NCBI GenBank assembly: GCA_016190215.1
Contig: JACPRA010000020.1
Location: forward strand, 12,868-76,867
Origin: Candidatus Omnitrophota bacterium
GTDB lineage: Bacteria; Omnitrophota; Gorgyraeia; Aquiviventales; Aquiviventaceae
Length of the DNA: 64,000 nucleotides
Reading direction: 5' to 3'
The notes under the pieces are model-generated. The model was not told the origin of the DNA. It was given only the letters and a program-made list of their open reading frames with translations, and made no database searches. Below, piece by piece: positions 1,840 to 61,712 of this stretch (position 1 is the first letter of the stretch; each line of letters begins with the position of its first letter). Both the position numbers and the translations under genes were made by a program.

Positions 1840-3086
1840 ACCACAGCAGACAGCAGACAGCACACAGCCGACAGACAGGTCCAGAGCGGTATCCGCTTGT
1901 TCTGTTTGCTGTGTGCTGTGTGCTGTGCGCCGGGCTCTCCGTCGGATGCGCGGTGCTGTGGCCGATCGGCTCCCGGGTGCCCCATCATCCGGCCAGGGCG
2001 CAGGAAACACTGGAGGACGGCTACCACGATCACCCCGGCGTCATCCACGTGCACACCACGTACTCCCACGACGCCGACGGCACGCTGGCGGACGTCGCGC
2101 GGGTGGCCAACGCGGAAGGGCTGCACTACGTCATCACGACGGAGCACAATAATCTCCGCTCGCTGCGCGAAGGCAACCAGGGCTGGCACGGCATGACGCT
2201 GATCCTCGTGGGCGAGGAGGTCTCCACGCGGGACGGGCACGTGCTCGCGCTCAACGTGCAGGAGGAGATTGACCGGGACCAGCCCACCCAAGCGATCCTC
2301 GACGAGATCGCCCGGCAGGGCGGGCTGTCGTTCCTGGCCCACCCCTACTTCAAAAAACATCGCTGGAAGAACTGGTCCGTGCAGGGGTTCACCGGGATCG
2401 AGGGATACAACACCACCCACGACGCCTTCGACGAAAACCTGCTGCGCGTGGCGTTGTGGGGCCTGACGGTGTCGCCCCATACGCTGTATCTCTCGCTCGT
2501 GGACCGGCCGTACGATCCGCTGGACCGGTGGGACGCGCTGGTCCGTCGGCACGGCCGCGTCGTCGGCATCGGCTCCAGCGACGCGCATGAAGTCCGCCTG
2601 TTGGGGGTGAAATTCGTGCCGTATGAGGTGCTCTTCAAGCTGGTGCGCACGCACCTGCTCGTGCCCGCCGGCGCGGCGTTGTCGCCGGCCGCGGTGTACG
2701 AGGCGCTGCGCGCCGGCCATGCCTATTTTTCCCTGGACCTGCTCGCGGACGCCACCGGATTCACCTTCATGGCCGACGACGGCCAACAGGTCTTCGGCGT
2801 GATGGGCGATGAGATCGAGCTGGCCGACCCGATGCAGCTGACCGTCATCCTGCCGGCCTCGGCCCACCTCGCGCTCTTCAAAGACGGCAGCGTAACGGCC
2901 ACCAGCGTCGGGCGGGTGTGGCACATCCGCGTGAGCGAGCCGGGCAGTTACCGGGTGGAGGCTTCCTTGAACGGCAAGCCCTGGATTTTTTCCAACCCCA
3001 TCTACGTCAGCCTACAGCCTACAGCACACAGCATACAGAACGAGCCGTCGTCTTCAATGCCCTCCCCGACCCCCACCGCGGAGTGA
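1836..3086 (+). CDS. PHP-domain metal-dependent phosphoesterase, secreted/membrane-anchored
   Basis: Carries the HVHTTYSHDADG ... ITTEHNN PHP motifs. The N-terminus MNHSRQQTAHSRQ...[13 protein letters not shown] is encoded entirely by the family-1 palindrome. The start overlaps the pmbA stop (ATGA). Confidence 0.7.
   Translation: MNHSRQQTAHSRQTGPERYPLVLFAVCCVLCAGLSVGCAVLWPIGSRVPHHPARAQETLEDGYHDHPGVIHVHTTYSHDADGTLADVARVANAEGLHYVITTEHNNLRSLREGNQGWHGMTLILVGEEVSTRDGHVLALNVQEEIDRDQPTQAILDEIARQGGLSFLAHPYFKKHRWKNWSVQGFTGIEGYNTTHDAFDENLLRVALWGLTVSPHTLYLSLVDRPYDPLDRWDALVRRHGRVVGIGSSDAHEVRLLGVKFVPYEVLFKLVRTHLLVPAGAALSPAAVYEALRAGHAYFSLDLLADATGFTFMADDGQQVFGVMGDEIELADPMQLTVILPASAHLALFKDGSVTATSVGRVWHIRVSEPGSYRVEASLNGKPWIFSNPIYVSLQPTAHSIQNEPSSSMPSPTPTAE
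1843..1935. repeat. Palindromic heptamer-repeat element, family 1 (CAGCAGA/CAGCACA ... GCTGTGT), full hairpin
   Basis: The left arm cagcagacagcagacagcacacagccgacagacag and right arm ctgtttgctgtgtgctgtgtgctgtgcgcc form an inverted repeat. It is embedded in the first 35 codons of the PHP gene. Confidence 0.85.
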
Positions 3087-3152
3087 CCGGCAACCCCCTA
3101 TGACGCGCCGAAACATGTTCACTCTGTTTGCTGTGTGCTGTCTGCTATGTGC
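3008..3152. repeat. Family-1 repeat, two arms separated by about 80 nt spanning the PHP 3' end and lipoprotein 5' end
   Basis: The left arm is cctacagcctacagcacacagcatacag (3008-3040). The right arm is ctgtttgctgtgtgctgtctgctatgtgct (3118-3150). The right arm encodes the lipoprotein signal peptide LFAVCCLLCASLGC. Confidence 0.75.
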
Positions 3153-4065
3153 TAGCCTGGGCTGCGCCCACGTGCGGCTGGACCCGCGCTATCAGGGCGT
3201 CCAACCGCTTCCTCCTGAGGCCGTCGAGTACTACACCGTCCCGGGCGAGCCGCCCGCTGCGGAACCGGAATGGATCGAGGAGCGCAGAGCGTACCGTCGA
3301 GGTATGGTGCGATTTCCGTTGCAGGCGGATTTCGAGCCCACCGAACCGATGGTGGAGATCGAATGGTTCGAATCCCGCAAACCCGGCCGGCGGCCGGCGA
3401 TCCTCTTTTCCCCGATCCTCGGCGGCGACTACCCGCTGGAGCGAGGATTTTGCAAGTACTTTGCTTCCAAAGGGTTCCATGTCGCTTTGGTCCACAGAAA
3501 AACGCTGAAAATTTCTCCGGAGCACGGCGCCGACCGCATCGAGCTGTTGCTGCGCCAGACCGTCGTGCGCAACCGGCAGATCGTCGGCTGGATGAGCCGG
3601 CAGCCGCGCGTGGACCCGGAGCGACTCGGCGGCGTCGGCATCAGCATGGGCGGGATGGCGGATCTCATCACGGCGGCGGTGGAGCCGCGCCTGAAAGCGC
3701 ATGTCGTCCTCCTGGCCGGCGGCAGCTTGGCCGACATCATCCGCGATTCCCGCGACCGCCTGCTGACCAAACCCCGCGGCCGGTATCTGGCCGCCCACGG
3801 CCTGGATATCCCGACGATGCACCGGCGGCTCAGCGACGAGATCCACACCGATCCGCTGCGCTTCGCTCCGTACGTGGATGCCAGGCGGCTGCTCATGTTC
3901 ATCGCCCTCAACGACTCCACCATCGGCCGGAGCAACGCGCTGCGGCTCTGGCGCGCCGTCGGAAAACCACAGGTCATTTTCGCCCCAACCGGCCATTACA
4001 CCTCCTACCTGTACTTGCCCTATCTTAAATACGCCTCCCTGAAATTCCTCCGCAAGCACCTGTAA
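3100..4065 (+). CDS. Lipoprotein with alpha/beta-hydrolase fold
   Basis: Has a lipobox SLGC after a hydrophobic N-terminus and a GISMGG nucleophile-elbow-like motif. About 320 aa. Confidence 0.5.
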   Translation: MTRRNMFTLFAVCCLLCASLGCAHVRLDPRYQGVQPLPPEAVEYYTVPGEPPAAEPEWIEERRAYRRGMVRFPLQADFEPTEPMVEIEWFESRKPGRRPAILFSPILGGDYPLERGFCKYFASKGFHVALVHRKTLKISPEHGADRIELLLRQTVVRNRQIVGWMSRQPRVDPERLGGVGISMGGMADLITAAVEPRLKAHVVLLAGGSLADIIRDSRDRLLTKPRGRYLAAHGLDIPTMHRRLSDEIHTDPLRFAPYVDARRLLMFIALNDSTIGRSNALRLWRAVGKPQVIFAPTGHYTSYLYLPYLKYASLKFLRKHL

Positions 4066-7195: not shown

Positions 7196-7310
7196 ACTTG
7201 ATTATGGATGCCTGACGAAAGATGATGCTGGATGACTGATGATAGGTGATGGATGTCGTTCGCCCTTCATCAATCATCCATCATCAGGCATCAATCATCT
7301 CTCCTCAGAA
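7196..7310. repeat. Palindromic element of about 100 bp, family 3 (GATGATGGATG), copy 1
   Basis: The arms gatgcctgacga...gatgatag and catcaatcatccatcatcaggcatc form a long stem. It is about 93% identical to the copy at 18858-18975. It sits between the convergent genes yjbQ and the C45 peptidase. Confidence 0.85.
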
Positions 7311-8508
7311 GTTCCTCTACGTTAAGGCGGTGGTACGGGGTCTGAGCCGCCCGCGTCATTCCCTGCGCATTGGCGACCCACATGTCGGGCCACGCAAACA
7401 CCACGCTTTGCATATTGGAGCCGGGGGCCACCGCCTGCGCGATTTGCATCGCGCCCTGGGCGTCGAGACGGCCGTAGTGGGCCATGAGGCCGGCGGCTTG
7501 GCCGAGATAGCGCACCTCATACGCGGAGCCGGACGGCGGCTCCAGCCCCGGGCGCTTGGGGTCCCCGCCGGAGGCGATCTGCCTGGCGCGGATGCCGGGG
7601 TCCATCGCCGTATCCGCGCGCAGCACGGCATCCGGCACCGGGCGGGCGTAGGAGACTCCGGCTTCCTTCGGGTCGTCCGCCTGGAAGACCACCGCCTGCC
7701 GGTGCGTGGTTTCGACCGCCACCGCCCGCGGCGGCTCGGCCTGCGCGATCACGTAGTTGACGCCGACGGTGCGGGGCGCCGTCCGGATGATCTCCACCGC
7801 TTGGTCCAGCGCGGAGGCGTCTTCCAACACGCGGCGCATCAGGAACACCATGGGGATCCCGCGGGCGGAGATGTCGTCGGTTTCCGCGCCCACCTGCCCG
7901 ATCGAGATCGCCTGGTCATTGATGCCGGTGAGGACGCCGATAAACCCGGCCCACCCCGCATTCACAAACGCGCGGCGGCCCGACGGCTTCACCACGAACA
8001 CCGCCGCAAACTGCTGGAGGCCCACCTCGATGTTCCAATCCAGGTTCCGGCTATGCACCAGCCGTCCCGATGAGGTGGCGCGCCCCCAGGCCGCCACGTT
8101 CGCGCAGGAATACGTGCGGTCTGGAATCGCGTGCAGGCGGGCCAGCTCGCGCAGCGGCACGCCGGACCCCTGCGCCAACCCCCGCAGTTCTTCGCGGTAG
8201 GCCTCCGGCAGAAAATCCCATCCCTGCGCCCAGGCACGGTCCAGCCACCAGTCCGCCGCCCAGCGGTTGACCAGCGGCACCTTCAGGTAGCGCCGGAAGT
8301 AGCTCAGCACCTGCGCCACACACTGCCGCACCTCCTCGCGCAGCAGCTCCCCATGCTGCCGTCCCAGCTCGTACGGTGAGCCCTCCAGAAAAACGATGGG
8401 AAGTTCTTCCTGATATTCGACGTGCGCCGCCTCCGCCGTGACAAGTGACAAGTTACAAGTGACAAGAATCATGACCAACCACACTCGCCAGGTTCGCATT
8501 TCTTTCAC
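7291..8508 (-). CDS. C45-family peptidase (acyl-CoA:6-APA acyltransferase-like), secreted
   Basis: Has the autoproteolytic YSCANVAAWG motif region. The signal peptide MILVTCNLSLVTAEA is encoded by the GTGACAAG repeat arm. An AGGTGA RBS precedes the start. Confidence 0.5.
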   Translation of the reverse strand: MKEMRTWRVWLVMILVTCNLSLVTAEAAHVEYQEELPIVFLEGSPYELGRQHGELLREEVRQCVAQVLSYFRRYLKVPLVNRWAADWWLDRAWAQGWDFLPEAYREELRGLAQGSGVPLRELARLHAIPDRTYSCANVAAWGRATSSGRLVHSRNLDWNIEVGLQQFAAVFVVKPSGRRAFVNAGWAGFIGVLTGINDQAISIGQVGAETDDISARGIPMVFLMRRVLEDASALDQAVEIIRTAPRTVGVNYVIAQAEPPRAVAVETTHRQAVVFQADDPKEAGVSYARPVPDAVLRADTAMDPGIRARQIASGGDPKRPGLEPPSGSAYEVRYLGQAAGLMAHYGRLDAQGAMQIAQAVAPGSNMQSVVFAWPDMWVANAQGMTRAAQTPYHRLNVEELLRRDD

Positions 8509-8570
8509 CTGTCACCTGTCACGTGTCACTTGTTGCCCGCCCTGTCACCTATCACTTCATCCATCATCCG
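8436..8570. repeat. Family-2 heptamer repeat (GTGACAG), inverted pair
   Basis: The left arm is gtgacaagtgacaagttacaagtgacaag (8438-8466). The right arm is cacctgtcacctgtcacgtgtcacttgt...ctgtcacctatcac (8505-8560). The left arm encodes the C45 signal peptide. The right arm encodes the ceramidase C-terminus GDRAGNK plus stop. Confidence 0.85.
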
Positions 8571-12575: not shown

Positions 12576-13979
12576 TTAACGACAATCAACAGTGGCCCAA
12601 CCCGTCCGATACTCGAGCAGCCAGCTATTTCCAGACGAGGGGCATGGTGAGGTGCAGCTCGTTCCTCCCGTCGCAATAATCGTGGAGCTTCCACTGTAAC
12701 AGCTCGGGCCGGTATATGCATGACAGACTCTCCATCCACCCCCGGCACCGCACGATGGAACGGTGGATGAGGTAAATCCGCCGGTACCCCCCGGCACCGT
12801 CCCCCTGTAACACGGTCCAGTAGGCCACACACCCAACACCTCCTCAGAAGATGTTGTGGTGTAGCTGTCGAGGCAGGTCCACTCCGGATTGCGCGTCTCC
12901 TCCCCGTCACAATTATAGTCGTAGCTTCCGCTGCTTCTCGGCGAGGAGAAAAACGCGTTCTGTTCAGGATGGACATTGTTGTTCCCATCATCGCAGTCCG
13001 AAGGAGTCGTCCTGCTGGTTCGATAGCCGCCGAGGCTCTCACAAGAGATGCCCCGACACACCGTCACTACCCCAGCGAGCGTCCAAACGTCGTTGTCGCT
13101 ATCCGGATAGCACGCGAGCAGCTGCCATTGGCTTCCGTCCGTTGGCGCGCAGTCAGTGCCATCATGGCTCGCAGTCCACCCGGTCGCCGGAGCTGGCTCT
13201 CCACAGACTTGGGTGGCCACGGCGTCAGGGGTGGTATGACCATCATTGTCCGGATCGGGATAGCGGGTATACAGCGCGTATTTGGTCGGATCGCCGTCAT
13301 CGCAGTCATCAGGACTCGAGCGGGTTGTCTTCCATCCGGCTGGGAGAAACGGATCCCCTTGAATCGTCTGCAACTCACCAATGGTATGCCCATCCCCATC
13401 ACTATCACGGTAGGCTTGATACGTTTGGCCTCCAGGGGGGTCCGCACACGCGACAGAGACTGGAAGCAACGTCCCATCAGTCTTGATATAGAGGTTATGA
13501 CAGGTCGGGTTGCCGACCGGACTGTCCACGTCAACCAGTCGCAAGCCGGTGCCGCGAACCGGCAGAAAGACGTCTCCCGCCACCGCCAACGGCGCTCCCG
13601 GCTGCGTGGTTCCGATCCCGACCCGGCCCTCCATGGTCACCAGCAGCCCGGCGGGTTTGCACTCCTGGTCGTCCAGCGCGCGATCCGCATTCTCGTCATA
13701 CCAGGCGGTCCCGCTCGGACAGGGGCCGGTCGTCCCGCCGACCATTGTGGGGTTGGTGGCCGGGGAGCCGGCGACCACCAGCCGATGCAAAATCGGTTGA
13801 TTGTCCGAATCGGTAGGCCGCTGGCCGCCGATGGCCAGCGTTTCGGTAGCACGCAGCTCCTGATAGACCCCGCGCGGGGAGGGGTAGTAGGTCGTGAGGG
13901 TGAGGTCTTCGGCGAGGGCGTAGGCCAGGGTGCCCACGCTAACCAGCACGACCAACCAGTTCCCGATTCTCGTTCGCAT
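12576..13979 (-). CDS. Secreted Cys/Asp-rich protein with shared N-terminal module (paralogue A)
   Basis: Has a signal peptide then EDLTLTTYYPSPRGVYQELR. The body carries repeated DSDGDGHT / DPDNDGHT / DCDDGDP / DCDDGNN motifs and is Cys-rich. 467 aa. Confidence 0.8.
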   Translation of the reverse strand: MRTRIGNWLVVLVSVGTLAYALAEDLTLTTYYPSPRGVYQELRATETLAIGGQRPTDSDNQPILHRLVVAGSPATNPTMVGGTTGPCPSGTAWYDENADRALDDQECKPAGLLVTMEGRVGIGTTQPGAPLAVAGDVFLPVRGTGLRLVDVDSPVGNPTCHNLYIKTDGTLLPVSVACADPPGGQTYQAYRDSDGDGHTIGELQTIQGDPFLPAGWKTTRSSPDDCDDGDPTKYALYTRYPDPDNDGHTTPDAVATQVCGEPAPATGWTASHDGTDCAPTDGSQWQLLACYPDSDNDVWTLAGVVTVCRGISCESLGGYRTSRTTPSDCDDGNNNVHPEQNAFFSSPRSSGSYDYNCDGEETRNPEWTCLDSYTTTSSEEVLGVWPTGPCYRGTVPGGTGGFTSSTVPSCGAGGGWRVCHAYTGPSCYSGSSTIIATGGTSCTSPCPSSGNSWLLEYRTGWATVDCR

Positions 13980-14130
13980 GGTGGTGGGGCTCTCCGGGAT
14001 ACTCGGAACACCTCAAGAACTTTTCATGCCATTATACGCCGGTACGGCGTCTCTGAGTTTGGCACCAACAGGAACGCCTCCGATGCTCCCCTACGTTACG
14101 TGTCCCCGCGGAACCCGGTACGGATTTCCA

Positions 14131-15408
14131 TCAATGATATACCTCCTCAACGCAATAGTAGACGTTGTTGCCTGCGCTGGAAGCAAAGTTCTGATAGAAC
14201 TGAACGCCGAAACACGTAACGTTCGAACCAGACCCGACATGGTCGGACGCAAACAGGCGGCAACTGCTCCCCTGTGGGCACGGGTTCACAGAACAGGCAC
14301 TGCCGGTTAACCAACGGTATGGAGCAGTGACGACAGGCCCGCAGCTGCTGTTGAGAACTCCCCACTCTTGGCTCGTCGTATCATCGGCCGTCCCATTGCA
14401 ATCTTGGTCGAGACCATCAGGACTGCTCGTCGCATTGCCGCTGCTCGGAAAACACATCGAACAGCTATCATTGCAATCGGTATTGGAGGCCGCCAGATTC
14501 GTTCCGCAGACGCCCGGCCCCGAAGCACAAATCGGCGACCCGCCTGCGGCATTTCGGTCTCCATACTCGTCATTATCGCCATCGGGATAACAGGTCACGA
14601 GCACATGCACCGCCGCATCGTTGTCGTTGCAGTCCGCCGACGCACTGCTGGTCGTCTTCAAATACGCTGGATGAGTGCCGGCGGCGCACACCGTGGCGGG
14701 ATCGGCCAGCGTCCAGCCATCGTTGTCTTGATCCGGCCAGCCGGTGTAGGACTGCCAAACGCTGGGGTCGTTGTCGTCACAATCGTTCCCCTGTTGGGAC
14801 GCTCGCCAGCCCCCCTGCTCAAACGTTTCCAAGGAAACATTCTGCGCCCCTCCTACGGTGTAACCATCGTAGTCGCTGTCCCGATAGGCGGAGAGTGTCC
14901 GGCCGCCAGGCGGATCCACGCAGGTGACGGCGAGCGTCAATAGCGCACCGGTCGAATCCACGTACAGGTTATAGCATTTCGTCGGGTCGTTGATGGCGCG
15001 CATGCGCAGGCCGGCGCCTTGGGTTTCAATGGCAATGTCGCCGCCCTTAACGCCGAACGTCGCCGCCGGCTGCACGGTCCCGATCCCCACCGGCCCCGAT
15101 GTGCTCACCACTAATGCGGTCCGCTTGCACTCTCCCTGCGCGTCCTTCAACCCATTCTGATTCTCGTCATACCAGTCATACCCGGCGGGACAGTCCCCGA
15201 ATTCCGTTCCCACGCTTCCCCCCACGATTGTGAGAACCCCCTTGGACTCGCTCGTCCCCAGGCTGGCGTTATCTACCACCCGCAAGGATTTATAGACCCC
15301 GCGCGGGGAGGGGTAGTAGGTGGTCAGCGTGAGGTCTTCAGCAATCGCATAGGCGACCGCGCCGAAGCACGCCAGCAGCAGCAGCCCGCGCGACCGGATC
15401 GGACTCAT
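14131..15408 (-). CDS. Secreted Cys/Asp-rich protein with shared N-terminal module (paralogue B)
   Basis: The same N-terminal module (AEDLTLTTYYPSPRGVYKSLR) and the same DxDxDG / DCDD / DCND Cys-rich motifs. The ATG overlaps the ICMT stop (ATGA). Confidence 0.8.
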   Translation of the reverse strand: MSPIRSRGLLLLACFGAVAYAIAEDLTLTTYYPSPRGVYKSLRVVDNASLGTSESKGVLTIVGGSVGTEFGDCPAGYDWYDENQNGLKDAQGECKRTALVVSTSGPVGIGTVQPAATFGVKGGDIAIETQGAGLRMRAINDPTKCYNLYVDSTGALLTLAVTCVDPPGGRTLSAYRDSDYDGYTVGGAQNVSLETFEQGGWRASQQGNDCDDNDPSVWQSYTGWPDQDNDGWTLADPATVCAAGTHPAYLKTTSSASADCNDNDAAVHVLVTCYPDGDNDEYGDRNAAGGSPICASGPGVCGTNLAASNTDCNDSCSMCFPSSGNATSSPDGLDQDCNGTADDTTSQEWGVLNSSCGPVVTAPYRWLTGSACSVNPCPQGSSCRLFASDHVGSGSNVTCFGVQFYQNFASSAGNNVYYCVEEVYH

Positions 15409-18857: not shown

Positions 18858-18959
18858 GGCTCATGATGCTGAATGCCTGATGAAAGATGATGCCGGATGA
18901 CTGATGATAGATGATGGATGTAATTCGCCCTTCATCAATCATCCATCATCAGGCATCAA

Positions 18960-18975
<16 letters not shown>
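18858..18975. repeat. Palindromic element of about 100 bp, family 3, copy 2
   Basis: Near-identical to 7196-7310. It lies between glpD and glpK. Confidence 0.85.
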
Positions 18976-28016: not shown

Positions 28017-28580
28017 TCATGATCCCTTTTTGCCGCCGGCGGCATACCGGTCGTTGAGCGACTTCAGCACTTCGTCGGTGAGATCGTAGACATCGTCGCC
28101 GACGATCAGCGAGCGCTGGTCCAGCACCAGGGAAAATCCGTTCGCCCTGGCGTACGCGGTGACGGCGCCGTCAATCTCATCAAAAATCTGCTTGGCCACC
28201 TGGTTGCGGTCGCGCACCGACTCCCGCTCGCTCTTGGTCTTGAGCCGCTGGAATTCGTCCGACTTCTCTTCCAGCTCTTTCGACTTGGCTTCTTTCGCCT
28301 GGTCGTTGAGCAGCTCCAGGTTCTGCCGCATCTTCTTGAGCTCGCCGAGCCGCCCTTCCAGCTCCGACAGCTTCTGCTTGCCGCGCTGCTCCAGCACCTG
28401 CTCGGTATCCTTGGTGCGCTGGTACTCTTCAAACACACGGACCAGGTTCACGTAGCCGATTTTCAGCTCGGCCGCCTTCAGGACGGGACAGGAGACAGGT
28501 GACAGGAGACAGGTGCCAACCAACAACGCTCGGATGCTCCAGGACATCATCCACGTGTTCAGCCGAACTGGCGTCTTCAT
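28017..28580 (-). CDS. skp: OmpH/Skp periplasmic chaperone
   Basis: Has a signal peptide. The coiled-coil is rich in Lys/Glu (KIGYVNLVRVFEEY...). It sits between bamA and the lpx genes. Confidence 0.7.
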   Translation of the reverse strand: MKTPVRLNTWMMSWSIRALLVGTCLLSPVSCPVLKAAELKIGYVNLVRVFEEYQRTKDTEQVLEQRGKQKLSELEGRLGELKKMRQNLELLNDQAKEAKSKELEEKSDEFQRLKTKSERESVRDRNQVAKQIFDEIDGAVTAYARANGFSLVLDQRSLIVGDDVYDLTDEVLKSLNDRYAAGGKKGS

Positions 28581-28662
28581 CACGTCGTCTCTCCTCATGC
28601 AGTTGTTGTGTCGTCGCATACCTGTCTCACTTGTAACCTGTCACGTGTCACCTGTTACTTTG
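28478..28662. repeat. Family-2 heptamer repeat (GTGACAG), inverted pair flanking the skp 5' end
   Basis: One arm is gacaggagacaggtgacaggagacaggtgcc (28478-28520). The other is cctgtctcacttgtaacctgtcacgtgtcacctgtt (28620-28660). The first arm encodes the Skp signal peptide LLVGTCLLSPVSCPV. Confidence 0.8.
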
Positions 28663-34684: not shown

Positions 34685-34775
34685 TCAGCACACAGCTGAC
34701 AGCACACAGCCGACAGCAGACAGAGGAAACGCCGTAATGAAATGTCTGTGTGCTGTCTGCTGTGTGCTCAAGGCT
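34682..34775. repeat. Family-1 palindromic heptamer element, full hairpin
   Basis: cagcacacagctgacagcacacagccgacagcagacag, then a loop, then ctgtgtgctgtctgctgtgtgct. It lies between the pth start and the rplY stop. Confidence 0.85.
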
Positions 34776-39041: not shown

Positions 39042-40223
39042 TTACCACGAGATCACAACCTTGCCTTTGGCGCCAGTGCCCCCGTCCGGGCCACCTCCCG
39101 CTCCCCCGCCACCAGGCGCGGCCCCCACCGCAGCCGTCGTGGCTCCGCCGGATCCGCCATTGCCGCCATCGCCGCCTCGACCGCCGGAGCCGGCCACTGG
39201 CGTATCGCCCTGGGCTCCTGCTTGGCCTGAAATCGCCAAGGTCAGCGTACTACTCCCTCCCTGGCCGGCCCCTGAGCAGGTGGTACTGCACCCGTTTTTC
39301 CCTCCACCACCACCGGTCGCGTTATACGAGATCCCTTGTCCGGAAAATGTGCTCGAGCCGCCGGTGCACCCGTACCCGCCACATGCCGCTCCGCCTGCTC
39401 CGCCCGCTCCAACCACCACCGTATATGAGGCTCCGGAGATGACCGGCACAATCCCCTTGCCGTATCCTCCGCCTCCTCCCCCGGCGCCTGGCGTCCAACA
39501 ACACACGGCATTCCCGCCTCCGCCGCCCGCCCCCCACATCTCCAGCACAATCTGGGGCACATCCGCCGGAGCGATAAACGTATAGGTGCCTGCCGTGTCA
39601 TACGGTTGTATCCCATGCGGGAGGGCCCCGCCGGCGGATTTCCAACTCGTCCCATCATAGACTTCCAGTTGGTTCGAGTCCGTGTTATAGATGACCATCC
39701 CCTCCACCGGAGAGGTCACCGCGCTCGGGAGCAGCCGGGGCGGAAGGAAGCCGGAATTGGTCGAACGAATGTCCAGGGCGGCGGTCGGATTCGTCGTCCC
39801 AATGCCGACCTGGCCGTTGAGGAAAATGAGTGTGCTCGTGTCGCTGGTCCCGACGCGTAACGTATTGCCCTGCACCCGCAGCGCGTACCCTCCCGGATCG
39901 GTCGTCCCGATGGCGACATTGCCGTTACTATCGATCAAGAAGGGGCTCGTATCCCCGCTCGGAGCATCATCAATACGAAGGGTCGTTGTTCCGCCGCCGC
40001 CGACCACATACACGGCAGGATTGTTCAGATCGCCGATGACCTGCAATCGCGCGGCGGGCGAACTCGTCGTGCCGATCGCCACATCTCCGCTGGTGCGCAG
40101 CTCCTTATAGACGCCGCGGGGCGAGGGGTAGTACGTCGTGAGGGTCAAGTCTTCGGCGAGGGCGTAGGCGAGGGTGCCAAGAAGGATAACCAGAACCCAC
40201 CAGCCGCGGAGGCGTGAAGTCAT
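39042..40223 (-). CDS. Secreted Gly-rich protein with shared N-terminal module (paralogue C)
   Basis: The start MTSRLRGWWVLVILLGTLAYALAEDLTLTTYYPSPRGVYKELR is chosen by alignment to the other three paralogues. The body has the motif LPPRLLPSAVTSPVEGMVIYNTDSNQLEVYDGTSWK, then a Gly-rich domain (LEMWGAGGGGG ...), and ends GKVVISW. Confidence 0.75.
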   Translation of the reverse strand: MTSRLRGWWVLVILLGTLAYALAEDLTLTTYYPSPRGVYKELRTSGDVAIGTTSSPAARLQVIGDLNNPAVYVVGGGGTTTLRIDDAPSGDTSPFLIDSNGNVAIGTTDPGGYALRVQGNTLRVGTSDTSTLIFLNGQVGIGTTNPTAALDIRSTNSGFLPPRLLPSAVTSPVEGMVIYNTDSNQLEVYDGTSWKSAGGALPHGIQPYDTAGTYTFIAPADVPQIVLEMWGAGGGGGNAVCCWTPGAGGGGGGYGKGIVPVISGASYTVVVGAGGAGGAACGGYGCTGGSSTFSGQGISYNATGGGGGKNGCSTTCSGAGQGGSSTLTLAISGQAGAQGDTPVAGSGGRGGDGGNGGSGGATTAAVGAAPGGGGAGGGPDGGTGAKGKVVISW

Positions 40224-40913: not shown

Positions 40914-42158
40914 TCACCACGTGATCGCGACTCGGCCCGGGGCGCCATCCCCACCATCATATCCACTCACCACCGATGGATGCGCACCGCCACCACCTCC
41001 CCCACCGCCGGGAGCGTCGCCATTCGCCCCTGCATTCTGAGGCGCTCCCCCGCGACCACCGGTACCACCGTTGCCACCACTTCCGCCACTACCGCCTTTG
41101 GGAGGAATGTTTTGAGAAATGCACGCAGCATTTTCTCCCCACTGACCGGAGACACTCATGTATTCACTACTCCCGCCACCACGACCGCCATAGATCACAC
41201 CGCTCTCCGTGCTGCCTCCGGTCGCTAAGACCGTGCCGAATGCTTGGCTCGCAACAGTACTCGAGCCTCCAGCCGTCGCAGCCCACTCACCCTGAGCGAT
41301 GCCGCCCTGCCCTCCTGCCCCGACGGTGACGGTGATCGGATAGGAGGCTACGTCGGGCGTCACAGCCACCACCCGCTTTCCATATCCTCCTCCCCCGCCC
41401 CCTCCACCACCACAGGCTACCAACACCCCACCACTCATATACGAGTTCGCGTAGCTTCCACCCGCCCCCGCACCCCATGCTTCTATCTGGATGCTGGATA
41501 CATCTGGCGGAATCAGAAACGTGTTAGAACCGGGGCTAGTAAAGACTTCCATCCCGTGCGCCGATGGCGGCGGAGGTGGGGGCGGCGGAGTGCCGCCGCA
41601 TGGCCAGACCACGCTGCCACAGGCTTCCAGCTGATTCGTGTCGGTGTTGTAGACCACCAACCCCTCGGCTGGAGTGAGAATTGCATCCCGCTGGCTCGTC
41701 GTCATCCGGGGAGGCAACAATCCTTGAGTGACGGACGAGATTTCGACGGCCGCGGAAGCAGTGGGACTCGTTGTTCCGATCCCCACCTGCCCTGCCGTAG
41801 TCACGAGCAGGCCGGGGGGCCTGCACTCCTGGTTATCGAGGGAGAGGTCCGCGTCCTCGTCATACCAGGCGGTCCCGGCGGGGCAGGGGCCGGTCACACC
41901 CCCCACCTCTGTCGGGTTTGTCGCCGGGGCACCGGCCACGACCAACCGGTGCGGAATCAGCTGGGCTGAGGTGTCGGTGGGGCGCTGGCCGCCAATGGCG
42001 ACCATCTCGGTGGCGCGCAGGTCCGTCGTGCGCAGCGACTGATAGACCCCCCGCGGCGAGGGGTAGTACGTCGTGAGGGTCAAGTCTTCGGCGAAGGCGT
42101 AGGCGAGGGTGCCCACCAACAGAACAGCCACGATCCAACCGTTCAGGCGCGGAGACAC
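40914..42158 (-). CDS. Secreted Gly-rich protein with shared N-terminal module (paralogue D)
   Basis: Has a signal peptide then AEDLTLTTYYPSPRGVYQSLR. The first third resembles paralogue A (GPCPAGTAWYDEDAD). It then has LPPRMTTSQRDAILTPAEGLVVYNTDTNQLE, a P8 stretch, a Gly-rich domain, and ends GRVAITW. Confidence 0.8.
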   Translation of the reverse strand: MSPRLNGWIVAVLLVGTLAYAFAEDLTLTTYYPSPRGVYQSLRTTDLRATEMVAIGGQRPTDTSAQLIPHRLVVAGAPATNPTEVGGVTGPCPAGTAWYDEDADLSLDNQECRPPGLLVTTAGQVGIGTTSPTASAAVEISSVTQGLLPPRMTTSQRDAILTPAEGLVVYNTDTNQLEACGSVVWPCGGTPPPPPPPPSAHGMEVFTSPGSNTFLIPPDVSSIQIEAWGAGAGGSYANSYMSGGVLVACGGGGGGGGGYGKRVVAVTPDVASYPITVTVGAGGQGGIAQGEWAATAGGSSTVASQAFGTVLATGGSTESGVIYGGRGGGSSEYMSVSGQWGENAACISQNIPPKGGSGGSGGNGGTGGRGGAPQNAGANGDAPGGGGGGGGAHPSVVSGYDGGDGAPGRVAITW

Positions 42159-50128: not shown

Positions 50129-50173
50129 TCGCGCTCTCCGTCACTTTGCCACTCTGTCACTTGGCCACTCATC

Positions 50174-54369: not shown

Positions 54370-55797
54370 TCATTGCGGTCCTTCGCCGGCGTGCTTCTCC
54401 AGCGCGAACTTGTCCCCCTCATCGCCGAAGGGAATGGGATACTGGCCGGTCCAGCAGGCCGTGCAGTAGCGCTCCGGGTGCGTGACGCCTTTCTGCAGCC
54501 GCTCCAGCGAGAGGTAGCCGAGGGTGTCCGCCCCGATGAATTTGCGGATCTCCTCCAGCGACATCCGGTTGGCGATCAGCTCTTTCCTCGTCGGAAAATC
54601 CACCCCGTAGAAGCAGGAATACGACGTCGGCGGGCAGCTGATGCGCATGTGCACTTCTTTCGCGCCCGCTTCCCGAAGGCTTTTGATGCGCGCGCGCGTC
54701 GTCGTGCCGCGGATGAGCGAGTCATCCACGACCACCAAGCGCTTCCCTTTGATGATGTCGCGGATCGGATTGAACTTCACGCGCACTTTGAGGTCGCGGA
54801 TTTCCTGGGCGGGCTGGATGAAGGTCCGCCCGACGTAGTGGTTGCGGATGATGCCCAGCGCGAAGGGTATCTGCGACTCCAGGCTGAAACCCAGGGCGGC
54901 GAAGTTGCCTGAGTCCGGGATCGGCATCACCAGGTCCGCCTTCACCGGGTGCTCCTGGGCGAGCTGGCGTCCCAGTTTGACCCGCACCTCCTGCACGCTC
55001 TCGCCGAAGATGCGCGAGTCCGGCCGCGCGAAGTAGACATGCTCGAAGAGGCAATGGGTCGGCTGGACGGCCGGCTGGTCCTTGAAGGGAAACAGCGAGC
55101 GGAGGCCGGTCGGGCTGATGACGAGCACTTCGCCGGGGGCGACTTCGCGCACGAACCGCGCGCCGATCAGGTCCAGAGCGCACGTCTCCGATGCCAGCAC
55201 GTAGGTCTTGTTCAGCTTGCCCAAGCAGAGCGGCTTGAACCCGTTGGGGTCGCGGCAGCCGAACAGGCCGTCCGGCGTCAGGCACAGCAGCGAGTAGGCG
55301 CCCTTGAGCATCGGCAGCGACTCCATCAAATCTTCCTCAAAGGTCTTGTGTGTGGAGCGCGCCAGCAGGTGCAGGATGATCTCGCTGTCAATGCTGGTCT
55401 GGAAGATGGAGCCGGTCCCTTCGAGCATCCGGCGCAGCTCGTAGGCGTTGACCAAGTTGCCGTTGTGCGCGAGCGCGACCGAGCCCTTGGCGTACGTCAC
55501 CAGCAGGGGCTGCGCGTTCTTGAGGTGGCTCGAGCCGGTGGTGGAGTAGCGCGTGTGGCCGATGGCGGCGCGGCCGGGCAGCAGCCGCAGCGCCTCCTCA
55601 TGGAAGACCTCGGACACCAAGCCCTGCCCCTTGTGGGAATGCATCTTGCGGCCCTGGGAGGTGACGATGCCGGCCGCTTCTTCGCCGCGATGCTGCAGCG
55701 AATACAACCCCAGATAGGTCAGCCGCGCGGCGTCGCGATGGCTCCAAATGCCGAAGAGCCCGCAGGCTTCTTTGGCGCGGTCTTGATCCACACTCAT
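54370..55797 (-). CDS. purF: Amidophosphoribosyltransferase
   Basis: CGLFGIW contains the N-terminal nucleophile Cys, preceded by a short propeptide. The start at MSVDQ gives an ATGA overlap with the purL stop; the ORF also extends to 55824. Confidence 0.85.
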   Translation of the reverse strand: MSVDQDRAKEACGLFGIWSHRDAARLTYLGLYSLQHRGEEAAGIVTSQGRKMHSHKGQGLVSEVFHEEALRLLPGRAAIGHTRYSTTGSSHLKNAQPLLVTYAKGSVALAHNGNLVNAYELRRMLEGTGSIFQTSIDSEIILHLLARSTHKTFEEDLMESLPMLKGAYSLLCLTPDGLFGCRDPNGFKPLCLGKLNKTYVLASETCALDLIGARFVREVAPGEVLVISPTGLRSLFPFKDQPAVQPTHCLFEHVYFARPDSRIFGESVQEVRVKLGRQLAQEHPVKADLVMPIPDSGNFAALGFSLESQIPFALGIIRNHYVGRTFIQPAQEIRDLKVRVKFNPIRDIIKGKRLVVVDDSLIRGTTTRARIKSLREAGAKEVHMRISCPPTSYSCFYGVDFPTRKELIANRMSLEEIRKFIGADTLGYLSLERLQKGVTHPERYCTACWTGQYPIPFGDEGDKFALEKHAGEGPQ

Positions 55798-58100
55798 GCC
55801 GTCCTCCGAAACGCGCCACGCCATGCCGCGCTTAGTTCTCCGATGCCCGCGTCAATCCATTCCCCGATTTTCACGCGGCCTCCGCCGACGGTGCCGACCA
55901 ACCGCGCCGGCACGCCGGCGCGCGCGGTCAAGGCCGCCACCCGCTTGGTGCGGTGCGGCTCGCAGCTGATCACCACGCGCCCGGCGGACTCGCCGAAGAG
56001 CAGCGCATCTAATCTCAGTGACAGGTGACAGGTGACAAGTGACAGGTCCAACACAGCGCCAATGATATGATCCGGCTCCGCGATGCAGCACTCTGCCACC
56101 GCCACGGCCAGCCCGCCTTCGGCGCAATCATGCGCGGACTTCCACAGCCCGGCCCGCGCGCCCTCCACCAGCAACTGCTGCAACCGGCGCTCCGCCGCCA
56201 AGTCCACGCGCGGCGGCCGGCCCTGCTTGCGGTGATGGATCAGCTTGAGATATTCGCTCGCCCCCAGCTCCTCGCGCGTCTCGCCCAGCAGCCAGACCAG
56301 ATCTCCTTCATCCTTAAATCCCATCGTCACCGGCGCATAGCAGGCGCGTCCCTCTGTATGCTGTATGCTGTGTGCTGTGTGCTGAATCAATCCGATCATC
56401 CCGATCACCGGCGTGGGGTCCACCGCTCCGCGCGGGCTTTCGTTGTAGAGGCTGACATTGCCGCCGGTCACCGGCGTGCCGAAGGCGCGGCAGGCCTCGG
56501 AGATGCCGCGCACGCATTCGCGAAACTGCCACATGACGCCGGGGTCCAAGGGGCTGCCGAAATTGAGGCAATCCGTCACCGCCAGCGGCTCGGCCCCGAC
56601 GCAGGCCACGTTGCGCGCGGCTTCGGCCACGGCGAGCTTACCGCCTTCGTACGGGTCGAGCAGGCAGTACGTGCCATTGGCGTCCGTCGTCGCGGCCAGC
56701 AGCGTGCCGGTGCCTTTCAGGCGCAGCACCGCCGCGTCCGACCGGCCCGGCAGCACGACGGTGTTGGTCTGGACCATGTGGTCGTACTGCTCGTATACGG
56801 CTGCTTTATCGGCGATCGTGGGCGAGCCCAGCAGCTGCAGCAGGGTGTGATTCAGGTCGCGCGGCACCGGCACGGCGCGCAGCGGCAAGCGCTGGAGACG
56901 CGCAAAGCCCGCCGGGCGCTTGACCGGGCGGCGGTAGACCGGCGCCCCGTGCGTCAGCGCGGCGACCGGGGCATCCGCCACGAGCTCAGTCCCGTCGAAG
57001 ACGCGCACCCGGTCGCCGCCGGTGACGCGGCCGATCGTCACGGCATTCAATCCCCATTTGGCGAAGAGCTTCTTCACCGCGGCTTCTTGGCCCTGCTTAG
57101 CGATGAGCAGCATCCGCTCCTGCGATTCGGAGAGCATCACCTCGTAGGGCGTCATGCCGGTTTCGCGCCGGGGCACTTTGGCGACGTCAATCTCCATGCC
57201 GCACCCGCCGCGCGACGCGGTCTCAGAGGTGGAGCAGGTCAAGCCGGCGGCACCCATGTCCTGGATGCCGACGACGTCGCCGGTGGCCAGCGCCTCCAGC
57301 GTCGCCTCGATCAGACATTTCTCGGCGAACGGATCGCCAAGCTGCACCGCCGGGCGGTCCGCTTCGGATTCGTCGCTCAGCTCCCGCGAGGCGAAGCTGG
57401 CCCCGCCCAGGCCGTCGCGGCCCGTCGAGGAGCCGACGTAGATCACCGGGTTGCCCCTCCCGCGCGCCGCACCCTTCGCCACCGCTGTGTGCGGCACGAC
57501 GCCGATGCACATCACGTTGACCAGCGGATTCTCCCGATACGCTTCATCGAAGTAGATTTCTCCGCCCACCGTCGGCACGCCGACGGAGTTGCCGTAATCG
57601 GCGATGCCTTTCACGACCCCCTCGAACAGGAACCGCGTGCGGGCGTGGCCGTTGAGCGGACCGAAGCGCAGGCTGTCGAACAGCGCAATCGGCCGCGCGC
57701 CCATCGTGAAGATGTCGCGGATGATGCCGCCGACCCCGGTGGCCGCCCCGGCATGCGGTTCCACCGCTGAGGGGTGGTTGTGCGACTCGGCCTTGAACGC
57801 GACTGCCAGGCCGTCGCCGATATCCACCAGCCCCGCATTCTCCTTGCCGGCCGCCACCAGGATCCGCTTGCCTTTCGTCGGAAACGTCCTCAGATAAATC
57901 TTCGAGCTCGCGTAAGAACAATGTTCGGCCCAGAGGACGCCAAACATTCCCACTTCGGTCAGCGTGGGCGGGCGGCGCAGGATGCGCACGATCTGCGCGT
58001 ACTGCTCATCAGTCAGGTTGTGCGATTTCGCCACCCGACGGACGAGCCGCTCATCGTCTTTCACTGTGGGAGCCGTCGGCCTGGCTGGACTCATCGGCAC
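55794..58100 (-). CDS. purL: Phosphoribosylformylglycinamidine synthase subunit PurL, carrying two in-frame repeat insertions
   Basis: Full-length PurL (768 aa). The GTGACAG repeat at 56003-56047 encodes ...[15 protein letters not shown]... The GCTGTGT repeat at 56338-56382 encodes ...[15 protein letters not shown]... Both are in frame. Confidence 0.9.
56003..56047. repeat. Family-2 GTGACAG repeat arm inside the purL coding sequence
   Basis: cagtgacaggtgacaggtgacaagtgacaggtcc. It has no partner arm nearby. Confidence 0.8.
56338..56382. repeat. Family-1 GCTGTGT/ATGCTGT repeat arm inside the purL coding sequence
   Basis: ctctgtatgctgtatgctgtgtgctgtgtgctgaatc. Confidence 0.8.
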
Positions 58101-59911: not shown

Positions 59912-60361
59912 TCACTCGTCCACAGCCGGATCGGGCGGCAGCTCGCGCGGCGGCAGCGCCGGCGGTTTCGGAACGTTCAGCTCCGGGGTCGGCGCGAGCT
60001 GATAGGACAACACCCGGTTGTCCCGCACCTGAAACGGCACCACTTCCATCACCAGGTCGAAGGGAATCCACATGTAGGGCGGCGCCTTGAGCAGGGTGAG
60101 ATCGTCCGTCCGCTCATAGCCGTCCTTGACGAGGGCGATGCGGTGCCAGCCGTACCATTCAAAATCGTAGGTATAGGGGGTGACCCCTTGCATCTTGTGG
60201 TCATTGACGAAAATGACCGCACCCGGCGGGTTGGATTTGATCGTCAGGCTGCGGTGCAGGCAACCCGTGATCAGCAGACAGCAGACAGCACACAGCACAC
60301 AGATAAAGCGGTTGATCGGTTGGTCTTCCTGTCCGCTGTATGCTGTCTGCTGTGTGCTCAT
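59912..60361 (-). CDS. PEGA-domain lipoprotein
   Basis: Has a lipobox LITGC. PGAVIFVNDHKMQGVTPY...RIALVKDGYE is a PEGA-like domain. The first 35 codons (MSTQQTAYSGQ...FICVLCAVCCLLITGC) are encoded by a complete family-1 palindrome. The start overlaps the purB stop. Confidence 0.6.
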   Translation of the reverse strand: MSTQQTAYSGQEDQPINRFICVLCAVCCLLITGCLHRSLTIKSNPPGAVIFVNDHKMQGVTPYTYDFEWYGWHRIALVKDGYERTDDLTLLKAPPYMWIPFDLVMEVVPFQVRDNRVLSYQLAPTPELNVPKPPALPPRELPPDPAVDE

Positions 60362-61675: not shown

Positions 61676-61712
61676 AGGTGACAGGTGACAGGTGACAGGT
61701 GACAGGAGGAAC
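61676..61712. repeat. Family-2 GTGACAG tandem (4 units) in the purB 5' leader
   Basis: gaggtgacaggtgacaggtgacaggtgacaggagg. Confidence 0.8.

Follow-up and report, generated by a model that had tools for sequence, protein, structure and literature searches.

Heptanucleotide repeat arrays of two dispersed families within the purL gene of an Omnitrophota bacterium

How do two short tandem repeats come to lie in frame inside a conserved gene of purine synthesis? The gene in question, purL of a Candidatus Omnitrophota bacterium, codes for the FGAM synthase subunit PurL (768 aa) and is found on the minus strand at 55794..58100 of the window, the whole 64,000-nucleotide stretch of DNA analysed here. 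The ORF is intact, its product matches the Thermus thermophilus PurL of PDB entry 3VIU (E = 1e-196) and is 100% identical to one NCBI Omnitrophica PurL (P0001), and the local gene order is purB-purC-purS-purQ-purL-purF-purM. An error in the assembly or binning of this metagenome-assembled genome is conceivable, as the exact window protein is represented by a single contig only and assemblers can be misled by short repeats; two database contigs in which purL is broken precisely at the first of the two arrays (L209 and L210) are possible examples. However, the window's purL ORF is intact, arrays occur at both sites in independent NCBI, ENA, JGI and Logan assemblies, and the array-bearing protein P0003 is present in 16 contigs, leaving an artefact very improbable.

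Both segments are arrays of four tandem 7-nt units, about 30 nt long and in frame with PurL, for which TRF gives a period of 7, 4.3 and 4.4 copies and 91-95% matches. The site-1 array (56354..56384, minus strand; aa 573-582) is of the CAGCA[C/T]A type, here called family A, and reads in mRNA sense CAGCACA, CAGCACA, CAGCATA, CAGCATA, CAG. The site-2 array (56016..56047, minus strand; aa 686-695) is of the CTGTCAC type, family B, and reads CTGTCAC, TTGTCAC, CTGTCAC, CTGTCAC, TG. A first-pass annotation had already reported two in-frame repeat strings from distinct families in this ORF, between recognisable PurL segments. Both strings are indeed in frame within the intact minus-strand ORF, cagtgacaggtgacaggtgacaagtgacag at 56016-45 and ctctgtatgctgtatgctgtgtgctgtgtgctg at 56352-84, and conserved PurL blocks flank both; the peptides it quoted are likewise there, encoded at 56007-51 and 56343-87, a few bases from the positions it gave (56003-47 and 56338-82). 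That purL is essential, as the annotation put it, is an assumption only. As 7 and 3 have no common factor, translation of such an array would give a peptide with a period of 7 residues. At third positions, GC is 50-60% in the array codons versus 84% for the whole purL gene.

The two sites differ when set against the closest orthologue (L001, 85% aa identity). In a codon-aware alignment, the site-1 array is followed by a tail (56337..56353, minus strand; AGGGACGCGCCTGCTAT in mRNA sense), and of the 48 nt of array plus tail 42 nt are extra, an insertion of 14 aa. A CTGCTATGC stretch that ends 2 nt past the tail is able to pair with the array's GCATACAG and may be the remnant of a second arm since lost, the pairing being weak in the minimum-energy fold and not significant. 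Site 2, in contrast, is equal in length to that of L001, whose codons there are different and non-periodic; compared with PurLs from outside the clade it has 4 extra aa, and compared with 3VIU it has 7. The expectation that both segments would prove to be loop insertions against orthologues was therefore borne out at site 1 and not in length at site 2. Judged from pLDDT and the secondary structure of the model, site 1 is a loop predicted to be disordered, the insertion being modelled as coil with pLDDT below 50 (aa 576-587), whereas for site 2 the model has a short helix at pLDDT 76-88. Of the two array-bearing loops, one comes after GMIGLI, at the junction preceding the last AIRS_C domain, and the other just before the invariant R-x-D-A-L-L-F-G-E-S.

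Neither purL array is isolated in this genome. By a strict criterion the window holds eight period-7 arrays and none of period 5, 6 or 8-11, and 100 Markov-1 simulations of the window gave no period-7 arrays; the array density is 3.75 per 10 kb. Families A and B each occupy five loci in the window, purL included, where none would be expected by chance; they are separate repeat families, as described earlier, and both are scattered through this genome. All non-purL copies of family A and most of family B are inverted-pair hairpins at gene boundaries. The family-A two-arm elements are found at 1843..1927, between two plus-strand genes (CAGCA[N]A x4, a 23-nt spacer and CTGT[N]TG x4; predicted hairpin of -54.8 kcal/mol, z = -4.7), at 3008..3153, across a gene junction where the left arm forms the last codons of ORF 1836-3086, at 34686..34768, separating pth from the gene for ribosomal protein L25 (z = -5.1), and at 60272..60358, between purB and purC (z = -5.3); their spacers are not conserved between copies. 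Family B has a two-arm element at 8438..8555 (GTGACAA x4 and TCACCTG x4-7), a similar one with a 111-nt spacer at 28487..28660 (GACAGG[A/T] and TCAC[N]TG), upstream of, or inside the 5' end of, the OmpH/skp gene, and a solo array, a perfect AGGTGAC x4.4, at 61676..61706 on the plus strand immediately upstream of purB. A third family, C, is a composite element with GGATGA-type arms whose two copies (7205..7299 and 18863..18964) are about 97 nt long and about 93% identical including the spacer, with unrelated flanks, and thus are duplicates of a whole element. In a folding test, the intergenic inverted pairs gave z = -4.7 to -5.3, whereas the solo arrays of purL folded no better than shuffled sequence (z = +0.9 and +2.7); the same test gave no internal hairpins in the purL arrays and no pairing between them, their arms being mutually non-complementary. 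An Rfam scan of the whole window returned tRNA-Gln alone, with no match on the arrays.

Could the purL arrays nevertheless have arisen where they stand, as ordinary microsatellites amplified by replication slippage from a resident heptamer? Growth from one to four units would lengthen the gene by 21 nt without breaking the frame, one-arm forms of site 1 in relatives exceed the empty forms by about 7 aa, and the site-1 array begins CAGC where L001 reads CAGCGG. According to work cited in PMC4679880, heptanucleotides are the most abundant longer simple repeat in many prokaryotes, and polymerase slippage has been put forward to explain them. However, a local origin does not account for the match of each purL array to a family at four further loci in the window, nor for what is seen in relatives: the purL array of L083 is identical (30/30) to an intergenic array 6.3 kb distant, purL and intergenic arrays of L004 share an identical order of unit variants, and in L088 one 73-nt two-arm element stands at both purL sites, 66 of 72 positions being identical and the spacer the same. 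Whole elements have been copied between loci in this clade. Moreover, intergenic arrays, which are free of any frame constraint, likewise favour four units. An origin in situ is accordingly improbable.

The arrays in purL are open in frame, and the first-pass annotation had taken this as evidence that such elements are selected to be translatable. That claim fails. A random heptamer of matching base composition has an 84% chance of being free of stop codons on a given strand, and 6 of the 12 unit types in the window have a stop codon on one strand. As GTGACAG contains TGA, family B is survivable only in the orientation found in purL, and survivorship is enough to explain the open reading frame of the purL arrays.

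A scan of genome collections with the PurL peptide pattern returned mostly Nitrospirota and other phyla, with only about four close Omnitrophota loci, and relatives were therefore collected individually. Among 120 PurLs of the Omnitrophota clade, many different heptamer arrays are found at these same two loops. Loop lengths cluster at 9-11, 18 and 29-31 aa for site 1 and at 11-12, 15 and 27-28 aa for site 2, with peptides that are periodic at 7 aa. Among close relatives, site 1 is plainly either empty or filled, and where filled it has an element of one arm or two, each arm with four units. At site 2, all eight array-bearing relatives read as DNA have exactly four units at the identical position; among those that share both with the window are L083, L087, L030, L084, L085, L086 and L004. 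The units themselves are CTGTCAC, GTGTCAC, CAGCGTA, CAGCACT, CAATCCG and TTCGGAA across these eight, and on the PurL tree the array types lie scattered; unrelated units occupy site 2 even in close relatives. The two loops are hot spots: in seven relatives, with about 100 neighbouring genes scanned, deep intragenic arrays occur in purL only, and outside Omnitrophota an 80-locus scan found an array in 1 of about 75 purL genes, the exception being a C-terminal array in L013.

It might be argued that the loops require a 7-residue repeat peptide and that nucleotide periodicity is a by-product. Peptides of this period are present at the sites in many homologues, and a short helix is modelled at site 2. 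However, different lineages encode unrelated peptides (LSLVTCH, SAIRNPQ, YSVQRTA and FGVRNSE among others), the period holds almost perfectly in the nucleotides, synonymous positions included, and the L001 loop is not periodic at all; selection on the peptide is close to refuted.

The DNA itself is conserved beyond neutral expectation. Between the window and L083, the arrays are identical at 27 of 28 positions, against an identity of 71.5% over the genes and 57% at synonymous third positions (P = 1e-3 to 3e-6). Four units are the preferred number, 61% of 147 arrays having 3.9-4.9 units. A metagenome scan for CTGTCAC x4 matched at least 120 contigs of 35-69% GC, none of the matches being in purL and only about 1 of 89 arrays lying deep inside a convincing gene. 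This shows that the CTGTCAC unit is widespread and mostly non-coding; since the scan was conditioned on at least four units, a strict four-unit rule cannot be claimed from it.

Such conservation could point to a function, either as a cis-regulatory DNA or RNA site for some factor or as a slippage switch of purine synthesis like that of neuO. There are precedents for both, as four-heptanucleotide elements of Geobacter are annotated as putative global regulatory elements (PMC2700814) and the neuO repeat is translated and capable of phase variation (PMC13001214). A change of one unit would break the purL frame, and in L209 and L210 the gene is broken right at the site-1 array. However, with unit sequences wholly different between relatives, no specific binding site is conserved. 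Four units are few for frequent slippage, neuO having 3-53, and the number at site 2 is four in 8 of 8 relatives. Of the two broken genes, L209 has a 31-nt deletion rather than a unit slip and the lesion of L210 is in G-runs prone to assembly error. Given these points, we regard either function as a poor prospect.

We think it probable that the two purL segments are solo copies of dispersed repeats of about four 7-nt units that settled in tolerant loops and have since been renewed or swapped. The dispersed class consists of arrays of about four tandem units, 28-31 nt in all, which in this genome and its relatives normally form inverted pairs, giving long hairpins at gene boundaries that often overlap stop codons. 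Under this scenario, the two loops in PurL of the Omnitrophota clade would accept nearly any peptide, such that arrays settling there would simply be translated, and only copies that kept the frame in a stop-free orientation would have survived. Resident arrays may then have been renewed, or exchanged for others of the same genome's families, by recombination or gene conversion between dispersed arrays or, alternatively, by a fresh insertion beside the resident array followed by deletion. For efficient homologous pairing, the minimal length is about 28-30 nt. Where a lineage lost its arrays genome-wide, the purL copy would decay to ordinary codons of the same length, as may have happened in L001, whose locus has one weak array in 17.5 kb compared with the window's 3.75 per 10 kb.

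Several observations count against this explanation. The roughly 58 ORFs of the window include no mobilising enzyme, and target-site duplications are not visible. Site 2 is exactly 15 residues in array-bearing and in non-periodic forms, basal ones included. The fair model confidence and short helix at site 2 make a floppy loop there less than obvious. Finally, homologous gene conversion alone cannot exchange a unit type for an unrelated one, and yet close relatives differ in just this way at site 2.

An alternative mode of arrival is de novo insertion, in which a transposase-driven element like an RPE or MITE would enter an empty loop anew in each lineage, with selection purging insertions elsewhere and so producing the hot spots. 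Whole-element duplicates exist (in L088, and family C in the window), site 1 is empty or filled in close relatives, and the intergenic elements resemble the inverted doublets of REPINs (PMC3116915). Yet insertion into an ancestral site-2 loop of 11-12 aa predicts about 21 aa and not a constant 15 aa with every unit type. Spacers of family A are not conserved, whereas those of MITE copies are, and the at least eight unit families within 13 kb of L087 are too many for one transposase each. Among the roughly 58 ORFs of the window there is no transposase, RAYT or integrase domain, and no target-site duplication is visible. Repeated insertion of this kind is therefore unlikely, though it deserves more weight than slippage in place.

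A further and speculative reading is that the arrays are the footprint of an undescribed copy-and-replace mechanism that recognises array periodicity and not a particular sequence. We hold this to be doubtful. If true, a new four-unit array or two-arm element would be written over, or beside, the resident one, the PurL loops would be long-lived landing pads with their content overwritten repeatedly, and the four-unit rule in Geobacter, Xanthomonas, Nostoc, Nitrospira and Omnitrophota would reflect the machinery, not G-quadruplexes or chance.

The purL arrays belong to a known but still unexplained class, the four-unit heptanucleotide arrays of Geobacter, Xanthomonas and Nostoc, with which they share the 7-nt tandem unit, the preference for four units, and dispersed copies that are mostly near gene ends and in some cases intragenic. 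Reports of such arrays from several bacterial phyla go back more than 15 years, with no accepted origin or function. In Geobacter metallireducens, the 49 reported Gmet_H4 elements are dispersed and made of four tandem 7-nt units as in purL; sets of five heptanucleotide repeats, paired and switching strand, occur there as well (Aklujkar et al. 2009, PMC2700814). The Gmet_H4 unit, GGACCGG, and the phylum are different, and that report, which read the elements as regulatory RNA or protein-binding sites, has no analysis of reading frame, of placement in protein loops, of hot spots or of turnover among relatives (PMC2700814). [quoted passage not shown] 2015, PMC4692102); the arrays described here differ in that their families form inverted pairs and occupy conserved enzyme loops. 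The four-unit preference of those heptamers was ascribed to G-quadruplexes (PMC4692102). This cause is ruled out here, as CTGTCAC, CAGCACA and CAGCATA have no GG or GGG runs, and with four units also preferred by units unable to form G-quadruplexes the only published explanation is removed.

Two other systems are similar in part. REPINs are extragenic, hairpin-forming doublets of REP sequences that RAYT transposases mobilise (Bertels and Rainey 2011, PMC3116915), and the intergenic members of our families similarly have two conserved inverted arms, a less conserved spacer and a hairpin, with solo copies that look like doublet remnants. However, tandem heptamers do not make up the arms of REP sequences; a REPIN family pairs with a single RAYT gene, whereas here there are many unit families and no RAYT among the roughly 58 ORFs of the 64-kb window; and the two purL copies are solo arms without an inverted doublet. 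E. coli K1 neuO, an accessory phage gene switched on and off by slippage of 3-53 units at its 5' end (PMC13001214), shares with purL a coding 7-nt tandem repeat, a 7-residue periodic peptide and a frame set by unit number. The purL arrays are unlike it in their fixed four units, their place in internal loops of a core enzyme and their dispersed families.

The literature holds nothing specific that we could find on heptamer repeats in Omnitrophota, and what is new here is the hot-spot turnover of arrays in enzyme loops. Omnitrophota PurL is a natural experiment, with empty, one-arm, two-arm, decayed and swapped states in more than 100 lineages, and as the two positions are fixed and alignable in a conserved enzyme, the protein can serve as a clock for how fast, and in which direction, arrays are gained, lost and replaced. 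Annotators of metagenome-assembled genomes should expect such arrays to yield peptides with a 7-residue period and spurious N-terminal extensions, and occasionally to break a gene. The likeness to Rickettsia palindromic elements (RPEs) drawn in the first-pass annotation is correct as far as translated repeat DNA in a housekeeping enzyme goes. As far as their descriptions reach, RPEs are also dispersed repeats found in frame in unrelated housekeeping genes, adding a peptide where the fold is thought tolerant, and comprise ten palindromic families, defined by sequence, of about 150 bp with a conserved encoded peptide (Ogata et al. 2000; PMC10969869). By those same descriptions the purL copies, at 30-48 nt, non-palindromic, without a fold or conserved peptide and in another phylum, are not RPEs. 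They instead make Omnitrophota the second case, following Rickettsia, of repeat DNA that has repeatedly supplied new loop sequence to a core enzyme.

An intact open reading frame of 768 codons on the minus strand (55794-58100 of the window) encodes PurL. It matches T. thermophilus PurL (PDB 3VIU) over residues 23-766 (E = 1e-196), its product is 100% identical to the NCBI-named PurL of a Candidatus Omnitrophica MAG, and the surrounding gene order is purB-purC-purS-purQ-purL-purF-purM-purD-purE. The first-pass annotation had reported two in-frame repeat segments in this gene, from two different repeat families. Both are real and lie within the intact frame; the DNA strings quoted are present (56016-56045 and 56352-56384), while the peptides are encoded at 56007-56051 and 56343-56387, 4-5 bases from where they had been placed. 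Tandem Repeats Finder (TRF) assigns a period of 7 to CTGTATG x4.4 at 56354-56384 (site 1, the loop after GMIGL) and to GTGACAG x4.3 at 56018-56047 (site 2, the loop before R-x-DALLFGES). Read as mRNA, site 1 is CAGCACA twice, CAGCATA twice and a final CAG (aa 573-582), and site 2 is CTGTCAC, TTGTCAC, CTGTCAC twice and a final TG (aa 686-695). Under a strict criterion the window holds eight period-7 arrays and none of period 5, 6 or 8-11; the same criterion found no period-7 array in 100 Markov-1 simulations. The period-7 arrays are far above chance expectation, and to regard them as an artefact is hardly credible. At third positions the array codons are 50-60% GC, versus 84% for the gene, and the rare ATA is among them, consistent with DNA that was not moulded as coding sequence.

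Each purL array belongs to a family dispersed in the window, as the assignment to two families had implied. Family A (CAGCA[N]A, complement CTGT[N]TG; site 1) comprises nine arms at five loci and family B (GTGACA[N]; site 2) occurs at five loci, where zero matches to either would be expected by chance. The four family-A loci other than purL are inverted pairs, an arm of ~4.4 units being followed after a spacer of ~20-85 nt by its complement, placed between genes or overlapping gene ends. Folding is strong in the intergenic pairs tested (-46 to -55 kcal/mol, z = -4.7 to -5.3) and absent from the two purL arrays, each a solo arm (z = +0.9 and +2.7). Within the site-1 insertion, the tail carries CTGCTATGC, able to pair with GCATACAG of the array, and may be the leftover of a second arm, its fold not being significant. 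The fetched loci, 1.41 Mb in all, contain 147 arrays, 61% with 3.9-4.9 units and 45% in inverted pairs; no Rfam family matches the arrays of the window. In many two-arm elements the left arm coincides with the final 3-22 nt of a gene, so that it encodes C-terminal residues and covers the stop codon (window 3008-3153; L083:10614-10647 and 14143-14168; L086:11984-12016 and 13508-13532, L-numbers being loci outside the window). A non-heptamer short array also lies at a gene boundary, a period-8/16 repeat (CTCCGTCACTTGGCCA x2.2) at 50136-50170 between rpiB and a low-molecular-weight phosphatase gene. Elsewhere in the window, two paralogous minus-strand ORFs with a Gly_rich_2 domain (PF21722; 39042-40310 and 40914-42158) have third-position GC of 0.67-0.70, below neighbouring genes, and several period-9 repeats (39145-39410, 40985-41096). 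The ~2.8 kb at 12576-15408 may be foreign or fast-evolving DNA: its long ORFs, of 467 and 425 aa, lack a convincing Pfam hit, third-position GC is 0.68-0.71 and overall GC falls to 0.62-0.63.

Both segments had been expected to appear as insertions of about 15 aa relative to orthologues, which holds for site 1 only. In a codon-by-codon alignment with the DNA of the closest orthologue (P0002, locus L001, 85% aa identity), the window has 42 additional nt (14 aa) at site 1, accounted for by the array and a 17-nt tail, where L001 encodes GLLQRPPVTM. Site 2 is of equal length in both, L001 having ordinary, GC-rich, non-periodic codons, LEAEALASGRRLRLD, in place of the array. Relative to 3VIU the window PurL has 13 more residues at site 1 and 7 more at site 2, and site 2 is 4 residues shorter in PurLs outside the clade than in the window. 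By these lengths site 1 is a plain insertion; site 2 counts as a replacement when set against the nearest relative, and as an insertion only over a longer evolutionary span. L001 is array-poor (one weak hit in 17.5 kb versus 3.75 per 10 kb in the window), and its non-periodic site-2 loop is what array decay would look like once renewal stops. In the L001 locus, small ORFs of 97 and 90 aa (7631-8193) separate purL from purF, genes that in the window overlap by 31 nt (55794-55824). A PEGA-domain gene separates purB from purC in L001; in the window nothing but a two-arm family-A element lies there. An AlphaFold2 model from a 25-sequence alignment (mean pLDDT 84, pTM 0.88) predicts the site-1 insertion (aa 576-587) as coil with pLDDT < 50, after the strand 563-572 and before the last AIRS_C domain, and site 2 (aa 686-695; pLDDT 76-88, short helix 687-690) between a strand and a conserved helix. 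Residues invariant in the alignment are all retained in the window PurL.

The same two loops vary across the clade. Among 120 homologues the site-1 segment has 9-11 residues (empty), 18 (one array) or 29-31 (two arrays), and the site-2 segment 11-12, 15 or 27-28; 7-residue periodic peptides make up many of these segments. Ten relatives were read as DNA, and the eight with a site-2 array all have it at one and the same position and with exactly four heptamer units, the units themselves differing: CTGTCAC (window, L083), GTGTCAC (L087, L030), [T/C]AGCGTA (L084), C[G/A]GCACT (L085), CAATCCG (L086) and TTCGGA[G/A] (L004). Site 1 carries GAATGCG x4 in L083 and two arms of four units each in L084, L085, L087, L005 and L030, some of them folding as periodic hairpins (z = -4.9, -4.0), and is empty in L001, L003 and L004. 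That the protein requires a repeated peptide is scarcely believable. Array types are scattered over a neighbour-joining PurL tree built with both sites masked, and sister sequences are mostly unlike in array type. A fresh transposase-driven insertion in each lineage is unlikely; no candidate mobilising enzyme was found among the ~58 ORFs of the window.

In an 80-locus genome scan, mostly of Nitrospirota and other phyla, internal purL arrays were restricted to Omnitrophota-type genes, with one exception, a C-terminal purL array in a Methylomirabilota locus (L013). Several other genomes of the scan have heptamer hairpins directly after the purL stop codon. In Nitrospira, a heptamer inverted pair (GGGGTAA / CCTCACG type) lies directly 3' of that stop, its position kept across several species (pairs or related loci at L046:2912-3006, L042:12289-12319, L026:12289-12319 and L020:4801-4886). 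Heptamer arrays are also present in Methylomirabilota and Peptococcaceae loci. Some Omnitrophota PurLs, ~1260-1280 aa long, have an intein (Pfam Intein_splicing and LAGLIDADG_3) as well as heptamer arrays (P0047, P0059, P0067, P0077; L088:7243-11052; L030), so that one gene hosts two kinds of selfish insert. Predicted PurLs of other relatives have long N-terminal extensions of 7-residue periodic peptides (such as MRNAECG and IRNPQS; P0020, P0023, P0026, P0028, P0052, P0075 and others, alignment columns 1-80; L087:10054-10125), which are probably upstream intergenic arrays read through from a start codon called too early. A further conserved protein carries heptamer arrays: an ORF of metagenome contig Ga0134123_10110481 (L165) with CTGTCAC-coded segments and the 7-residue periodic peptide EEGTGDREQGTGNRDE which, judged by eye, appears to be the C-terminal part of a DnaE2-like error-prone DNA polymerase.

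The elements had been proposed to be selected to be translatable, and of this there is no sign. Because the unit length of 7 is coprime to 3, every frame meets each of the seven codons of the cyclic unit in the course of 21 nt, and whether an array is open is therefore set by unit and strand, not frame. GTGACAG contains TGA, so only the orientation that purL has leaves family B readable; family A is free of stops on either strand. Among random heptamers of the same composition, 84% are stop-free on one strand and 72.5% on both; of the 12 unit types of the window, 6 carry a stop on one strand. In-frame, stop-free copies are simply those able to survive in a needed gene. We infer that the arrays are translated, given this orientation rule and the fact that every full-length homologue is in frame despite varied insert lengths. 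In two database contigs purL is split into two frames exactly at a site-1 array: one has lost 31 nt between GGGATG and an AATGCGG array (L209:3480-3560; P0100), and in the other the frame shifts within a G-rich array of GGGGCG[A/G] units (L210:4130-4200; P0111). Real pseudogenes, variants in the population and errors of assembly are all conceivable explanations.

Several loci point to copying. In L083, whose genome also carries the window's family A, the site-2 array matches at 30/30 positions an array that lies between genes 6.3 kb downstream. The purL array of L004 has TTCGGAG first and TTCGGAA after it, an order of unit variants that recurs in an intergenic array at a distance of 4 kb. L088 has one ~73-nt two-arm element at both sites of the same purL (66/72 identical, with a common AAACCA spacer) and a related array upstream. 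Within the window, 7205-7299 and 18863-18964 hold two copies of a ~97-nt composite element, each with a left part of 24-nt period and a TCATCAA x4.7 right arm; with 93% identity that includes the spacer, and with unrelated flanks, they indicate whole-element duplication within the genome. Between the window and L083 the arrays are identical at 27/28 positions, versus 71.5% for the genes and only 57% for synonymous third positions (binomial P = 1e-3 to 3e-6), so that the arrays are more conserved than neutral sequence should be. In-place slippage is improbable next to such matches between loci.

The best-supported scenario is that, early in the clade, two tolerant loops of PurL were settled by arrays from a dispersed class of repeats, which would then be translated and be repeatedly renewed or swapped with arrays of the same genome. 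Recombination between dispersed 28-30-nt arrays is a candidate route, which would yield near-perfect periodicity, identity with same-genome arrays and constant site-2 length, and would allow out-of-register pairing to homogenise units within an array. In E. coli, RecA-type recombination needs at least ~23-27 bp to pair efficiently, and this might be why arrays have about four units. Recombination leaves swaps between unrelated units in close relatives unaccounted for, and these would need a new insertion beside the resident array followed by deletion. Fitting that route, intermediates are known that have two different arrays side by side (22-aa forms such as GVRNLES + KIQNPKS), and unrelated arrays abut ~10 times more often than density predicts, a figure based on only 3 pairs versus 0.3 expected.

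In the searchable literature nothing was found on these repeats in Omnitrophota; the class of repeat is already known. What is new is the recurrence, throughout a phylum-level clade, of four-unit heptamer arrays with many sequences in two conserved loops of a core enzyme, together with direct evidence of element copying between the two sites. Among the longer simple repeats of many prokaryotes, heptanucleotide repeats have been reported as the most abundant (cited in PMC4679880). Paired sets of five are listed for Geobacter metallireducens (PMC2700814), and those of Xanthomonas and Nostoc are concentrated within 50 bp of stop codons, much like the gene-end overlap of left arms here, and under-represented in coding regions (Rehm et al.; PMC4692102). 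The window arrays share unit length, four-unit preference, dispersal and gene-end location with these repeats. Rehm et al. attribute the four-unit preference in Xanthomonas and Nostoc to G-quadruplex formation (PMC4692102); unlike those repeats the window arrays have no G-tracts, so that explanation does not carry over and is ruled out as the reason for four units here. The example of neuO shows that switching can be achieved by a heptanucleotide repeat that is translated (PMC13001214); that repeat has many more units than the purL arrays and varies in unit number. For the purL arrays a regulatory or phase-switch role is an improbable reading. REPINs are extragenic and tied to a RAYT gene (PMC3116915); they resemble the intergenic two-arm form but are not tandem heptamers, and no RAYT gene was seen among the ~58 ORFs of the window. 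Rickettsia palindromic elements (RPEs), to which the purL segments had been likened, are ~150-bp palindromes with defined families and conserved peptides (PMC10969869). The purL arrays lack the two defining features tested but share the in-frame insertion of peptides into housekeeping proteins. The original observation is confirmed and its interpretation right in part: these elements work like RPEs rather than being RPEs.
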